A DNA stretch of 64,000 nucleotides. It comes from an uncultured Bacilli bacterium (GTDB taxonomy: Bacteria; Bacillota_I; Bacilli_A; RF39; UBA660). Shown here piece by piece: positions 56,160 through 59,858 of the stretch (the stretch's first letter is position 1; every line of letters begins with the position of its first letter). Made by a program: the position numbers and the translations under genes. A model generated the notes under the pieces. The model made no database searches and was not told the DNA's origin. It was given only the letters and a program-made list of their open reading frames with translations. Where the stretch lies: contig CANRCZ010000002.1 of the NCBI GenBank assembly GCA_947629265.1, positions 6,567 through 70,566 of the forward strand, given 5' to 3'.

Positions 56160-56783
56160 CTAACTGGCTTTTTCTTTATATTCATTAACGATATTGTTTA
56201 ATTCGACCATCGTCTGATCGATTTGACTGATATTTTTAGAGTATTTGAATAATTGGTTAGTAACCTCTTTAGGTATCGTATTAGAGAATTTGTATTGGAT
56301 CTTATGATCGATACTAGCCCAGAAATCCATCGCTAGGGTTCTAATTTGAATTTCACATTTGATATCTTTAGTTCCATTAGCGGTAGGAACAGGGAACGTT
56401 ACGATAAGATGGTAGCTTCTATATCCCGTCGCTTTAGGATTTTTAATGTAATCTTTTTCTTTGATGATAGAGATATTTTTATCGTTTTTAATGATATCGA
56501 TTATTAGTGGTATATCTGTTATAAAGGCACATATTATTCTAATACCTACAACGTCGTATATGTATTCGATAATGTTGTAACAATTTATTTCATAATTTTT
56601 ATTTTTTAATTTTTGAAAGATACTTTCTTTTGATTTAATTCTTGTTTTAACATGTTCAACGGGATTGTATCCTGTTTTTATTTTATTTTCATATATTAAT
56701 GTATCAAGTTCTGTTTCTAGTAGCCTTAATGCTGACTTGTAATAGAACATCATATTTTCATATTTTTCGTCATCTATTTTCAT
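56160..56783 (-). CDS. small alarmone synthetase (RelQ/RelP-type GTP pyrophosphokinase, YjbM/YwaC-like)
   Basis: RelA/SpoT synthetase-domain motifs (DVVGIRIIC...GYRSYHLIV...). Length 207 aa. Confidence 0.65.
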   Translation of the reverse strand: MKIDDEKYENMMFYYKSALRLLETELDTLIYENKIKTGYNPVEHVKTRIKSKESIFQKLKNKNYEINCYNIIEYIYDVVGIRIICAFITDIPLIIDIIKNDKNISIIKEKDYIKNPKATGYRSYHLIVTFPVPTANGTKDIKCEIQIRTLAMDFWASIDHKIQYKFSNTIPKEVTNQLFKYSKNISQIDQTMVELNNIVNEYKEKAS

Positions 56784-56885: not shown

Positions 56886-56961
56886 GCTAGAATAGCTCAG
56901 TCGGTAGAGCAACTGTCTCGTAATCAGTAGGTCGCGGGTTCGATTCCTGTTTCTAGCACCA
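56886..56961 (+). tRNA. tRNA-Thr (anticodon CGU)
   Basis: Folded by hand. Acceptor GCTAGAA/TTCTAGC. D-arm GCTCAGTCGGTAGAGC. Anticodon loop CTCGTAA giving CGT. T-arm GCGGGTTCGATTCCTGT. Encoded CCA. Confidence 0.75.
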
Positions 56962-57269
56962 GTAAGCAATTTGTTCAAACTTTTATAGTTTAGGACTTAA
57001 ATATATAAGTATCAATTTCTAAAGAGGTTGGTATTTTTTTAGTGTTTAAGGAATAAAGGACAGGTTTAAATGGTAAATATTACAAAGAAAAAATTAGAAA
57101 GTGATAATGAATTAAAGAAAAAAATAGAATTCATAAATGATTTATATGATAAAGATATACTTGATGATAGTTAAATTGATATAATACAAAGTAATAAAAA
57201 TATTGATAAAGATGATGATTTTGGACGATAAATATGTTAAAATAATACGTAGTTAAAGGAGGTTTAAGT

Positions 57270-58304
57270 TTGATTTATTCAGAGGTAATTGAAAAAAGGA
57301 ACAAACATTGTAAAAAAATACAAACTAATCATTTGATTGTTTTATGTGAAATTGGAGAAAATTATAAATCATTTTGTGATGATTTAGAGAAATTAGTTAA
57401 ATCCATAAGTCATAGGGATTTAGTTAGTGATCTATATCGTGTTATGCAAGGAAAATTATCTATTAGCTCTAACAAATATAAAGAGTTTATAGAAAAACAT
57501 AAACATACTATAGAAATAATGAATAAGTATTCTTGTTTAAGTAATTTAACTGTTTTAAGTTATGATGAACAAGGAAAACGTAGAGAAAATTTAGCAGAGG
57601 ATTATTTCTATCAATATATTCAAGAACACAATGCGGATATAGAAACAATAAAAGCACTAGCATTAAAAATTAAGGCTCTTGGATTTAATGAGATTAATTT
57701 TGGAGAAAAATTAGATTTTACTGAAATTGAATATGAATTAGATAATTCATATGGAAGTGATTTTGCTTTTCTAGAAAATATGGAGGTCAATCCTACATAT
57801 TTAAGTAGTCCAATTAAATATAGAACAAATGGTTCGCATTATTGTTTGATTTTAAGTTCTAGTGGTTATGGTAGTAATAAAGAAATAAGTAAATATGGTA
57901 GAAACATAGAATTAAACAGTTTGATATTTGATCCAAATAAATTACCAAATGAAATAACAACAGAATCTACTATTGGTATAATTCAAGCATTAGCCGAAAA
58001 GAAAAAAGTAGAACATGAAGATATACAAGCTTCTGTAGATTTGAGTATAACTACTAGCGATTTAGTAGGTTATTTTGAACGCTTGAAAGAGGTATCTGAA
58101 AGAATTGATAAAATAAAAGATAATCCAGAATTAAAGAACTTATTAAATCAAATGCAAAATACATTGGCTCAATTACAATTATTTGGAGCAAATTTTGAAA
58201 ATCAAATAATTGATTCTTATGCAGGAATTACAGATGAAACAATGAGAAGAGAGAAAAAATTATATTTAGATAGAAGATATTGGTCCAGTATAGATATTGA
58301 TTAA
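57270..58304 (+). CDS. hypothetical protein (first gene of the tRNA-Thr-proximal islet)
   Basis: 344-aa ORF with no recognisable motif. Begins with TTG per the track. Confidence 0.3.
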   Translation: MIYSEVIEKRNKHCKKIQTNHLIVLCEIGENYKSFCDDLEKLVKSISHRDLVSDLYRVMQGKLSISSNKYKEFIEKHKHTIEIMNKYSCLSNLTVLSYDEQGKRRENLAEDYFYQYIQEHNADIETIKALALKIKALGFNEINFGEKLDFTEIEYELDNSYGSDFAFLENMEVNPTYLSSPIKYRTNGSHYCLILSSSGYGSNKEISKYGRNIELNSLIFDPNKLPNEITTESTIGIIQALAEKKKVEHEDIQASVDLSITTSDLVGYFERLKEVSERIDKIKDNPELKNLLNQMQNTLAQLQLFGANFENQIIDSYAGITDETMRREKKLYLDRRYWSSIDID

Positions 58305-58397
58305 TTTAATAAAATTTAACAAAGTGGCAAAAATGAATTGCTACTTTTTTTATTTTGTAGAATTATAGTAGAAATTGATACAAATATTGTATTGATT

Positions 58398-58555
58398 ACT
58401 CACTTTAGCGAAAATAGTTTGAAACAACCTACTTACTCGCACAATATAGATATTAAACTCGGAAAATTAGAGTAAAAATAGAGAAACTTGCAAAAAGTTC
58501 TTTTTTATGTTATTATGAATATGTCAAGGGAACTTGAATAAAATAAAAAAGGAAT
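58398..58555 (+). repeat. copy 1 of a ~110-150-nt direct repeat carrying a TTGCAA-17-TATTAT promoter
   Basis: Copy 1 and the copy at 58893-59012 are about 85-90 % identical (tatagatatYaaMctcggaaaattMgagYaaaatagagaa(a)cttgcRaaaagttcttttttatgttattatgaaYatgtcaaggRaacttga). Confidence 0.7.
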
Positions 58556-58634
58556 ACCTAATTATAACGAGTTAGGTACTATTCCTGAGATTTTAAGATT
58601 AGTACCGACCTATATAGTTGGTACTATTTTTATT
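58488..58634 (+). ncRNA. candidate antisense sRNA (type I antitoxin-like): promoter, ~110-nt transcript and intrinsic terminator
   Basis: -35 TTGCAA (58488-93), 17-nt spacer, -10 TATTAT (58511-16). Terminator hairpin TAGTACC...GGTACTA (58600-26) plus T5. The terminator region is complementary to the 3' end of the convergent toxin ORF. Confidence 0.4.
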
Positions 58635-58702
58635 AGTATGATTATAATCACAATAATAAGGAGTATTATGATATTACAAAGATATTTCTCTGATTTTCTC
58701 AT
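58610..58702 (-). CDS. candidate type I toxin: 30-aa hydrophobic peptide MRKSEKYLCNIIILLIIVIIIILIKIVPTI
   Basis: Not in the track. SD GGGGTG 6 nt upstream of the ATG. Minus-strand promoter TTGTGT-17-TATAAT at about 58757-58790. The 5' UTR contains the near-perfect palindrome CCCCTTT-c-ACTTTTAAAAGT-AAAGGGG (58711-37), which can sequester the SD. The 3' end overlaps the convergent sRNA terminator. Confidence 0.45.
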   Translation of the reverse strand: MRKSEKYLCNIIILLIIVIIIILIKIVPTI

Positions 58703-58892
58703 AATTTCACCCCCTTTCACTTTTAAAAGTAAAGGGGAATAGTACCTAAACTAACTAAGTATTCCTAAAGTAATTATATCAAACTTTTGTTTGTAACACA
58801 ATAGTTTTTGTAATAAATTTATTACAAATTACAAATAGCTATAGAATTAAATTGTTTATTTATTTGTGGTGTTGATTTTGGACTATTTTAAC

Positions 58893-59012
58893 TATCGCAC
58901 CATATAGATATCAACCTCGGAAAATTCGAGCAAAATAGAGAACTTGCGAAAAGTTCTTTTTTATGTTATTATGAACATGTCAAGGAAACTTGACCAAAAT
59001 GAAAAGGATACA
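58893..59012 (+). repeat. copy 2 of the direct repeat (TTGCGA-17-TATTAT promoter)
   Basis: See copy 1. Drives transcription into 59013-59225, a hairpin-rich region. Confidence 0.7.
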
Positions 59013-59332
59013 TTTGATTGCGTGAATCAGATGTTATCCCTTGTGGAGTGCATCTGAAATCAACGATTGTTGAAATCAGATGTTTTTATTATTTAAGTTT
59101 CAAAGGTGTCGAATTCGACACCTTTGAAATTGAAGCTACTAGTAATAAATTTAAAATATCTCCACAAAAATTGATTAAAGAAACAAATACAATTGAAATA
59201 ATATCTAAATCAAGTAATCTATAAATTAAATATTTTATTTAAAAAATCATAAAAACTCAATTTTTGCATATAATAATATGAACACTTGACGTACGTAAAA
59301 AAGTACGTTATAATTGAATTGAGGTGAGAGCT

Positions 59333-59590
59333 ATGAGTACAATAAATATAACTAATGCAAGAGCTAATTTATATCAGTTGGTATCAGACGTAAATGTTGG
59401 ATTTAATCCAATTACGATCGTTAATAATAAAGGAAAAAATGCTGTTTTAATATCAGAAGATGAATGGAAAAATATTGAAGAAACTTTGTTTTTATCAAGT
59501 ATACCAGGCTATGTTGAAAATATAAATGATATAAGAAATAACGAAAATTGGACTAATGCTAAGGAATATAAAGAAGATGAGGAATGGTAA
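59333..59590 (+). CDS. yefM: YefM/Phd-type antitoxin
   Basis: MSTINITNARANLYQLVSDV...AVLISEDEWKNIEETL is typical of YefM. An operator-like inverted repeat ACGTACGT-a6-GTACGT lies between the -35 TTGACG and -10 TATAAT upstream. Confidence 0.65.
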   Translation: MSTINITNARANLYQLVSDVNVGFNPITIVNNKGKNAVLISEDEWKNIEETLFLSSIPGYVENINDIRNNENWTNAKEYKEDEEW

Positions 59591-59858
59591 TTCTTATATA
59601 ATTAAATTTTCTAAACAAGCAGAAAAAGATAAAATTAAACTTAAAAATGCTAATTTAGATAAAAATTGTAAAAATATATTAAATTTAATTCTTGAAGATC
59701 CATTTTGTTATCCACCAACCTATGAAAAATCAATAGGTGAATTAGCTGGTTTATATTCTAGAAGAATAAATAGACAACATAGAATTGTGTATGAGGTTGA
59801 TGAAACTAAAAAAGAAATTCACATTTTAAGGATGTGGACACATTATGAAAAATTGTGA
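59577..59858 (+). CDS. yoeB: YoeB/Txe-type ribosome-dependent mRNA interferase toxin
   Basis: C-terminal ...LYSRRINRQHRIVYEVDETKKEIHILRMWTHYE matches the YoeB signature (R..H..HRLVY.....i.v..c..HY). Start overlaps the yefM stop (ATGAGGAATGGTAA). Confidence 0.65.
   Translation: MRNGNSYIIKFSKQAEKDKIKLKNANLDKNCKNILNLILEDPFCYPPTYEKSIGELAGLYSRRINRQHRIVYEVDETKKEIHILRMWTHYEKL

Follow-up and report, generated by a model that had tools for sequence, protein, structure and literature searches.

In a 64-kb stretch of contig CANRCZ010000002.1 from an uncultured Bacilli bacterium (hereafter the window), positions 58445–59092 carry what is probably a compact (~460 bp) type I toxin-antitoxin (TA) cassette, in which a gene for a 30-amino acid (aa) hydrophobic peptide converges with a small RNA (sRNA), followed by a second copy of the sRNA promoter belonging to a cassette of a sister group that is reduced to its sRNA. 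We put the probability of this reading, which rests on comparative sequence analysis, at about 0.72. An initial annotation of the same DNA had proposed a type I TA system at this position, and the proposal is supported by the same arrangement of convergent sRNA and small open reading frame (ORF) in ~45 species, by a coding signal in the ORF, by sequestration of its Shine-Dalgarno (SD) sequence and by covariation in an sRNA hairpin termed H2. Three features common to type I systems generally were present, namely a small hydrophobic ORF with a ribosome-binding site, a predicted antisense RNA with promoter and terminator, and SD sequestration. Taken together, the related loci constitute a family of type I TA-like cassettes that is new, well conserved and unusual in its modularity and position.

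The toxin ORF of the complete cassette, cassette 1, was taken from the ORF list (58610–58702, minus strand; MRKSEKYLCNIIILLIIVIIIILIKIVPTI) and encodes a peptide with a charged N-terminus followed by a hydrophobic run of ~15 residues. It belongs to peptide group A, with orthologues in the family loci L001, L023, L038, L039 and L043. Variable sites counted within peptide groups numbered 27, 17 and 47 at codon positions 1, 2 and 3, respectively, ORF length was kept at 25–31 aa, and the small ORF looks coding. A near-consensus SD sequence (GAAAGGGGGUGA; GGGGGUGA at 58707–58714) ends 7 nucleotides (nt) before the AUG and forms one arm of a palindrome at 58711–58737, so that SD and anti-SD hairpin together occupy 58707–58737 of the minus strand. 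In group A this hairpin has been kept by compensatory changes, with a C-G pair in the window and a U-A pair in relatives. The SD core had a median unpaired probability of 0.04 in 30 toxin mRNAs compared with 0.54 in 29 SD-bearing control genes from the same 64-kb window (Mann-Whitney, p = 5e-8), and by these fold predictions SD sequestration is family-wide. The toxin promoter, recognized from sequence, lies at 58773–58801 on the minus strand (TTGTGT-17-(TGA)TATAAT) and has a predicted start near 58766. Its -10 region in the window, TGATATAAT, is read from plus-strand positions 58773–58781, and every group has a TATAAT, usually as TGnTATAAT, 6–9 nt upstream of the toxin mRNA's 5' element, which is described below. 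The ORF, good SD, promoter and SD-occluding palindrome that had been annotated on the minus strand are thus all in the sequence.

On the plus strand, promoter and terminator scans recovered the promoter, ~110-nt RNA and terminator of the initial annotation. The promoter of the putative antitoxin sRNA (58488–58516; TTGCAA-17-TATTAT with a TG extended -10) contains a 25-nt core that is present twice in the window against 0.01 occurrences expected and is found exactly in 48 loci; two terminator-like sites were found in the region against 0.2 expected. The predicted antitoxin, sRNA1 (58523–58631; ~109 nt), consists of a 5' GNRA hairpin (58524–58537; family motif GUCAAGGAAACUUGC), a family-invariant A-rich linker (58538–58549; AUAAAAUAAAAAAG), hairpin H2 (58550–58586) and a terminator (58600–58626 plus T5, U5 in the RNA) that covers the stop codon and last codons of the toxin ORF, a 3' overlap of the TxpA/RatA type. 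In the alignment of H2 96.5% of cells were paired, five of the seven inner pairs showed double changes and none of 500 shuffles reached the observed values, with shifted registers giving just 17–45% pairing. A covariance model, R1, built on the 5' hairpin, linker and H2, matched the window at exactly two places, 58523–58586 in sRNA1 (74.9 bits) and 58979–59041 in a second RNA, sRNA2 (67.7 bits). Fold z-scores relative to shuffled sequences were -5.85 for sRNA1, -5.38 for sRNA2 and -8.19 for the toxin mRNA. The 3' arms of H2 and of the terminator in each sRNA were observed to share a 9–11 nt motif (58573–58586 and 58617–58631 in sRNA1), which is GGTACTATT in group A and AATCAGATGTT in group F with equivalent sites in every group, and for this reason the sRNA could adopt alternative folds. 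A palindrome, GAACTTGCAAAAAGTTC, was also seen to overlap the -35 of the sRNA promoter (58483–58499, and likewise 58939–58955 in the second copy), and a motif, AACTTGCA/AACTTGAA, reappears in the sRNA 5' hairpin (58531–58541); the palindrome or motif at the -35 could serve as an operator for some regulator.

The sRNA terminator had been annotated as overlapping, and complementary to, the toxin 3' end. The overlap is borne out by coverage of the stop codon, but the plus-strand terminator makes a poor one for the minus strand, on which its complement lacks a U-run. The complement of H2, on the other hand, runs into UUUUUUAUUUUAU, the linker read on the opposite strand (U6AUUUU), so that the most likely end of the toxin mRNA is near 58540, ~60 nt beyond the plus-strand terminator. 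The predicted full-length toxin mRNA would accordingly be ~229 nt (58538–58766, minus strand), and the sRNA linker plus H2, read on the other strand, is most likely the toxin mRNA's own terminator. An end near 58540 explains why the linker is invariant, as it would form the U-tract of the toxin terminator, and makes sRNA1 antisense to ~95 nt of the mRNA 3' end. By geometry this complementarity is perfect and comprises the final ~8 codons, the stop codon and the whole 3' untranslated region (UTR).

Family loci were gathered by exact match to the 25-nt promoter core, with one genome taken per species. All 48 loci with the exact core are from metagenome-assembled genomes (MAGs) of uncultured gut Bacilli or "Erysipelotrichaceae", with rabbit, chicken, ruminant, mouse and human as sources; Ca. 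Onthousia, Ca. Faecimonas and Ca. Ventrenecus are among them. Strain variants sought by look-up of exact proteins yielded short contigs only, and one of these, L052, is from the same species as the window and identical to it over 58207–59674. Wherever enough downstream sequence was available a common layout was found, with a 5' GNRA hairpin, the invariant A-rich linker, a variable H2 and a variable terminator hairpin with U-run, and in the 30 modules whose ORF, SD and architecture were compared a convergent hydrophobic ORF of 25–31 aa with a strong SD overlapped the sRNA terminator. Model R1 additionally matched further copies in the loci, which lack the exact 25-mer, and copies with other promoters. 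The peptides fall into at least six groups, comprising group A (MRKSEKYLC.IIILLIIVI.I.LIKIVPT.; the window and five loci), group B (MKKRTFIVKVLRLVAIILLLLTLLVIAIKI; six loci), group C (MKTKTFIIKVLKLIAIILFLLIIMIVVIKK; five loci), group D (MKTKTFIVKVLKLVAIILLLSTLLVLAIKK; three loci), group E (MKKKDLLISFLILIIILLIVSLMILCIKK; four loci) and group F (MTKRE.S.FIIILLLFF.VI.LLFR; five loci), with a single sequence, group G, related to groups B–D. An exact look-up of ten of the peptides among 15 billion predicted proteins found none present. Cassettes appear to exchange parts. A second promoter module is situated inside the first sRNA in L019 (4733–4950), two cassettes of different groups with different promoters stand back to back in L036 (1750–2270), and the flanks of L010 and L013 are 95% identical up to the A-rich linker and then continue into different sRNA bodies. 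Many of the loci are located at contig ends, a tendency by which the cassettes may help to fragment MAG assemblies.

The duplicated promoter module of the initial annotation, described there as a ~110-nt element present twice, is a real duplication that represents the conserved left end of two tandem cassettes, although the limits given for the first copy (58398–58555) were not accurate; the direct repeats extend over 58437–58549 and 58895–59005 (~113 nt, 88–91% identity). Their spacing of 456–458 nt is the length of cassette 1, a complete group A cassette of 458 bp (58445–58902). Cassette 2 (58903–59092, plus strand) is a truncated, group F-like cassette with the promoter TTGCGA-17-TATTAT (58944–58972) and the predicted sRNA2 (58979–59087), which has H2 at 59006–59039 and a terminator at 59051–59082 followed by U5. 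It matches group F cassettes from -53 to +146 around the 25-mer, that is over the spacer, the promoter and the whole sRNA, and the match stops just past the terminator, where complete group F loci continue for 180 nt with the toxin, SD hairpin, 5' element and toxin promoter. No group F-like toxin ORF was found anywhere in the 64-kb window, and in place of the missing toxin half there is an inverted repeat in the form of a 42-nt near-perfect palindrome (59093–59134; TTAAGTTTCAAAGGTGTCGAATTCGACACCTTTGAAATTGAA), which has no U-run on either strand and among the fetched loci was found only in this species (L052). As the group F match ends after the sRNA and the toxin half is replaced, sRNA2 is interpreted as an orphan antitoxin. 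The initial annotation was probably right to regard a predicted 68-aa ORF here (59018–59224, plus strand) as non-coding, but the segment is not an unrelated hairpin-rich one and instead corresponds to sRNA2 without its toxin gene. The ORF is most likely not a gene because it spans sRNA2, its terminator and the palindrome; it has no Pfam match and is not conserved, and it was rejected as a gene given that the same frame in group F relatives stops after ~12 codons (by eye).

The two ends of the toxin mRNA are predicted to pair with each other. At its 5' end the mRNA carries an element (58736–58766, minus strand) that is a near copy of the H2 of sRNA1, with 58736–58749 being the exact reverse complement of 58573–58586, and the first ~30 nt of each toxin mRNA in the family is similarly a near copy of H2 in the cognate sRNA. 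Within the locus GGTACTATT is found three times, and the whole window has four copies against 0.8 expected. As the RNAs are convergent, the toxin mRNA's 5' end is complementary not to the sRNA but to the mRNA's own 3' terminator region. Cofolding of the 5' element with the 3' terminator gave a mean free-energy difference (ddG) of -15 kcal/mol compared with ~-2 kcal/mol for the 5' element and sRNA H2. Among the 26 toxin mRNAs that could be modelled, the minimum free energy (MFE) fold linked the two ends by 20–30 long-distance pairs in 25, the other, L033, having seven. For the toxin mRNA of the window the ddG was -20.5 kcal/mol and 29 long-distance pairs were present in the MFE fold, a panhandle joining both ends. 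Cognate 5' and 3' partners gave -11 to -25 kcal/mol and partners from unrelated groups ~0, with partial cross-reaction among the related groups B, C, D and G. Since the motif shared between sRNA arms is also present in the sRNA terminator, there is a second target for the toxin 5' element, a weaker one, within the end of the coding sequence. A switch in which sRNA binding re-buries the SD was considered and is unsupported, the SD being predicted buried in both states. Fst-like pairing of the sRNA to the toxin 5' UTR was likewise rejected, with a mean cofold ddG of -3.1 kcal/mol and inconsistent sites.

The cassettes also share a genomic address. Among 51 copies, 26 were located 23–63 nt downstream of an intact tRNA or transfer-messenger RNA (tmRNA) gene in the same orientation as the sRNA, the adjoining tRNAs being Leu-CAA, Leu-TAG, Leu-GAG, Thr, Phe, Ala, Lys, Arg and Met and L047 providing a second tmRNA case. 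Most of the remaining copies come after a CCA-ended remnant, and the motif NC[ACT]CCA was present 23–63 nt upstream of the 25-mer in 42 of 50 copies (4.7 expected). In the window the left junction of cassette 1 is a degenerate tRNA 3'-end-like remnant (58432–58444, plus strand; CTTACTCGCACAA) that resembles the 3' end of the L021 tRNA-Leu(TAG) (TTACTCGCACCA), and the cassette ends in a second CCA remnant (58890–58902; AACTATCGCACCA), with its right-end sequence found again upstream of the L012 cassette. The remnants preceding cassettes 1 and 2 read CGCACAA and CGCACCA, respectively, and there is a further site at ~59160–59167. Cassettes often end in another ...GCACCA remnant, in tandem, as seen in the window, L028, L035, L036 and the left flank of L012; these right-end remnants were examined as candidate tRNA-like RNAs and dismissed, having no tRNA match and fold z-scores near 0. 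Loci resemble one another only from about -60 to +330/+490 relative to the 25-mer, and they have no recombinase in common. A group B cassette is 99.6–100% identical in MAGs of three different species (L012 2300–2850, L027 3330–3810 and L035 2270–2500), whose flanks are unrelated; it lies after tmRNA in one MAG and after cassette remnants in the others. This suggests recent horizontal transfer, or else a binning artefact.

The initial annotation had placed the system in a small integrative islet downstream of tRNA-Thr. The tRNA-Thr(CGT) gene is present (56886–56961) and the connection with tRNA genes is real at the level of the cassette, but the integrase or insertion sequence (IS) of such an islet was not found. 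No transposase, integrase or recombinase domain was detected in the window ORFs between 56 and 64 kb and no terminal inverted repeats were present; a viral contig pattern scan returned 0 matches, and blastn of 58445–59092 against plasmids and phages gave no match. The possibility, raised with the initial annotation, that the repeats are part of an IS or other known element thus received no support from matches to transposases, integrases or mobile DNA. Comparison of the window flanks with the fetched loci revealed nothing common beyond the cassettes, bar distant era/recO matches in L010. Between tRNA-Thr and the window cassettes, which are 1.5 kb apart, lies a 344-aa ORF (57270–58304) for which neither a Pfam domain nor a homologue among the fetched loci was found, and the ~50 nt after tRNA-Thr (56962–57010) resemble by eye the spacer that precedes cassettes elsewhere (cf. 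L023). A cassette may once have adjoined tRNA-Thr and then been pushed off by an insertion.

In the standard type I arrangement of Gram-positive bacteria, the toxin ORF is overlapped from its 3' side by an antisense RNA, as in TxpA/RatA, BsrE-G-H, YonT and SprG/SprF (PMC8594479). In yonT/SR6 a convergent antisense RNA overlaps the end of the toxin ORF (PMC5848175), and txpA and yonT are silenced via RNase III (PMC3531473). The cassettes described here resemble txpA/RatA, bsrG/SR4, bsrE/SR5 and yonT/SR6 in having a low-GC Gram-positive host, a short hydrophobic toxin and a ~100-nt convergent antisense RNA on the 3' side. They also resemble these Bacillus subtilis systems in the burial of the SD in structure, and RNase III-dependent decay of the duplex would be expected by analogy. 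Unlike those systems, with which they have no similarity in peptide or RNA sequence, they encode shorter peptides (25–31 aa) with the charged residues at the N-terminus, the toxin 3' UTR covers nearly all of their sRNA, with a hairpin that doubles as a terminator, the toxin 5' end copies an antitoxin hairpin, and they are found beside tRNA genes rather than in prophages.

The initial annotation had compared the system with Fst as well as with TxpA and BsrG. The Fst/RNAII system (par of pAD1) has convergent Firmicutes transcripts with a common or overlapping terminator, and its toxin SD is sequestered by a 5' stem-loop. Convergent transcripts, an overlapping terminator and SD occlusion by a 5' hairpin are shared with the present cassettes, but as far as regulation is concerned the likeness holds just for SD occlusion, and complementarity of the sRNA to the toxin 5' UTR in the manner of Fst was not found. 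Direct repeats in par make RNA II complementary to the toxin translation-initiation region, whereas the repeats here are inverted (58573–58586 and 58736–58749), so that sRNA and toxin 5' element are the same in sequence and negligible pairing is predicted between them. The charge polarity of the peptides is opposite to that of Fst, and no Fst-type peptide (Pfam Fst_toxin) was found among six representative peptides.

Interactions of the mRNA's 5' end with its 3' end are known for hok and aapA (PMC6733600), and local anti-SD hairpins upstream and downstream of the SD have been described in mRNAs of the hok/aapA type (PMC6733600, PMC8594479). As in hok/Sok and aapA/IsoA, the full-length toxin mRNA is predicted from modelled folds to be locked by a long-distance 5'–3' interaction. 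In those systems, however, the 5' part is the target of the antisense RNA, and it is the 3' element that masks the SD or translation, whereas here the antisense RNA binds the 3' partner and the interaction is without clear SD control; the hosts are of another phylum and homology is lacking. Type I loci are noted for tandem duplication, with ibs/sib and ldr/rdl of Escherichia coli present as tandem repeats (PMC2887945), and type I modules of Clostridioides difficile adjoin CRISPR arrays (PMC5961336). With these modules the present family shares several divergent copies per genome, tandem copies and a recurrent genomic landmark. It is unlike them in that the landmark is a tRNA/tmRNA 3' end and that one conserved antitoxin promoter and 5' module is found across unrelated toxin groups. 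Searches of the type I TA literature returned no description of a tRNA-flanking type I family, which is absence of evidence and not proof.

These features may be combined into a working mechanism. The full-length toxin mRNA would close into a 5'–3' panhandle that is stable and untranslated, and abundant sRNA made from its strong promoter would bind the mRNA 3' region and displace the 5' end. The long sRNA-mRNA duplex would then be cut by RNase III, by analogy with txpA/RatA, bsrG/SR4 and yonT/SR6. Were the supply of sRNA to stop, the stable mRNA would eventually be activated and translated, and the peptide would damage the membrane. Several observations weigh against this interpretation of the locus. 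Masking of the 3' UTR, as a mimic of sRNA binding, produced no consistent change in predicted SD accessibility, and the likeness of the 5' element to H2 could reflect gene conversion or a common protein-binding site rather than selection for a panhandle. All RNA ends considered here are predictions, and the universality of the promoter is partly a sampling effect since the family was gathered with the exact 25-mer. A covariance-model search against known type I toxin and RNA antitoxin families, suggested with the initial annotation, gave no support, as Rfam at the gathering threshold (window and 16 loci) and at E <= 10 (locus) yielded tRNA and tmRNA only and no antitoxin family. Pfam and NCBIfam searches with six representative peptides returned noise only, with no toxin family at E <= 10.

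That the peptides match no known toxin family is also what would be seen if the ORF encoded a harmless small membrane protein, for example a modulator of stress or transport, with an antisense RNA that merely tunes its expression and no TA function at all, and many bacterial small membrane proteins are indeed non-toxic. We regard this as unlikely, as the hallmarks of type I systems are conserved in the form of a sequestered SD, a predicted panhandle mRNA and a strong, constitutive-looking antisense promoter, and as divergent and tandem copies together with an orphan antitoxin form a combination typical of toxin loci, tandem duplication being noted for type I loci specifically (PMC2887945). The chance that ORF and hairpins are accidents of AT-rich intergenic DNA is vanishingly small: isoleucine-rich ORFs do arise readily in a region of ~25% GC, but this is refuted by conservation in ~45 species, codon-position bias, the strength of the SD, covariation and z-scores between -5 and -8 for folding.

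The positional data lend themselves to another interpretation, in which the unit is mainly a mobile or recombination element aimed at tRNA 3' ends and the RNAs and ORF are cargo or by-products. Proximity to tRNA/tmRNA 3' ends (26/51 copies), the CCA-ended motif (42/50), the further ...GCACCA remnants at cassette ends, the tandem copies and the 99.6–100% identical cassette with different flanks in three MAGs all agree with it. It is nevertheless quite improbable, given the lack of transposase or integrase among the window ORFs between 56 and 64 kb, of terminal inverted repeats and of phage, plasmid or viral matches, and given that similarity ends at the cassette edges and that the repeat is a working-looking promoter with an sRNA 5' end and not an IS end; mobility would in any case be compatible with TA function, addiction modules being typical cargo of mobile DNA. 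Still less probable is that the sRNAs are mainly trans-acting regulators, or are processed from tRNA read-through, with antisense overlap secondary. Such a role would accommodate the intact retention of sRNA2 without a toxin, conservation of the 5' hairpin and linker across all groups irrespective of toxin, and the lack of a canonical terminator visible by eye between tRNA and sRNA promoter. The variable sRNA body, however, co-varies with its own toxin mRNA group, the linker's service as U-tract of the toxin terminator accounts for its conservation, and TA loci would be expected to leave orphan antitoxins as they decay.

The neighbourhood of the locus is that of a low-GC Bacillota chromosome (~25–30% GC), with yqfD, ybeY, cdd, era, recO and argS upstream. 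Outside the type I cassettes, at 59333–59858 on the plus strand, the yefM-yoeB type II TA pair that had been annotated as following them was confirmed by Pfam domains (PhdYeFM_antitox, 2.3e-14; YoeB_toxin, 8.3e-09). A palindrome, ACGTACGTAAAAAAGTACGT, is situated between the hexamers of its promoter (TTGACG-17-TATAAT, 59286–59314) and is probably the yefM-yoeB autoregulatory operator; the stretch just upstream of this promoter is by eye loosely like the cassette promoter. Immediately upstream of tRNA-Thr, at 56160–56783 on the minus strand, is a gene for a small alarmone synthetase (RelA_SpoT domain, RelQ-like).

A more far-reaching and distinctly tentative proposal, which we think is more probably wrong than right as a whole, would join these features into integrase-less miniature TA cassettes at tRNA/tmRNA 3' ends with a tRNA-coupled antitoxin and hairpin self-mimicry. 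If it were true, cassettes would insert into or exchange at tRNA/tmRNA 3' ends and pile up in tandem arrays, with the conserved antitoxin promoter and 5' module serving as a portable homology or attachment arm. With no terminator between tRNA and cassette, antitoxin supply would be coupled to tRNA transcription and toxin would be released once stable-RNA synthesis shuts down, and as the mRNA would carry a copy of the antitoxin hairpin, the antitoxin would compete with the mRNA 5' end for the 3' end. We know of no description of such self-mimicry for type I systems. The family is widespread in a poorly known lineage of uncultured Bacilli of the animal and human gut, yet Rfam, Pfam and NCBIfam do not contain it. 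Many divergent toxins could be found by way of the antitoxin promoter and 5' hairpin, which are nearly invariant. In these cassettes a single hairpin would have three roles, being an antitoxin domain, the terminator of the toxin mRNA and, as a copy, that mRNA's 5' end, and the strong association with tRNA/tmRNA 3' ends bears on how the modules spread and on the possible sensing of growth state.

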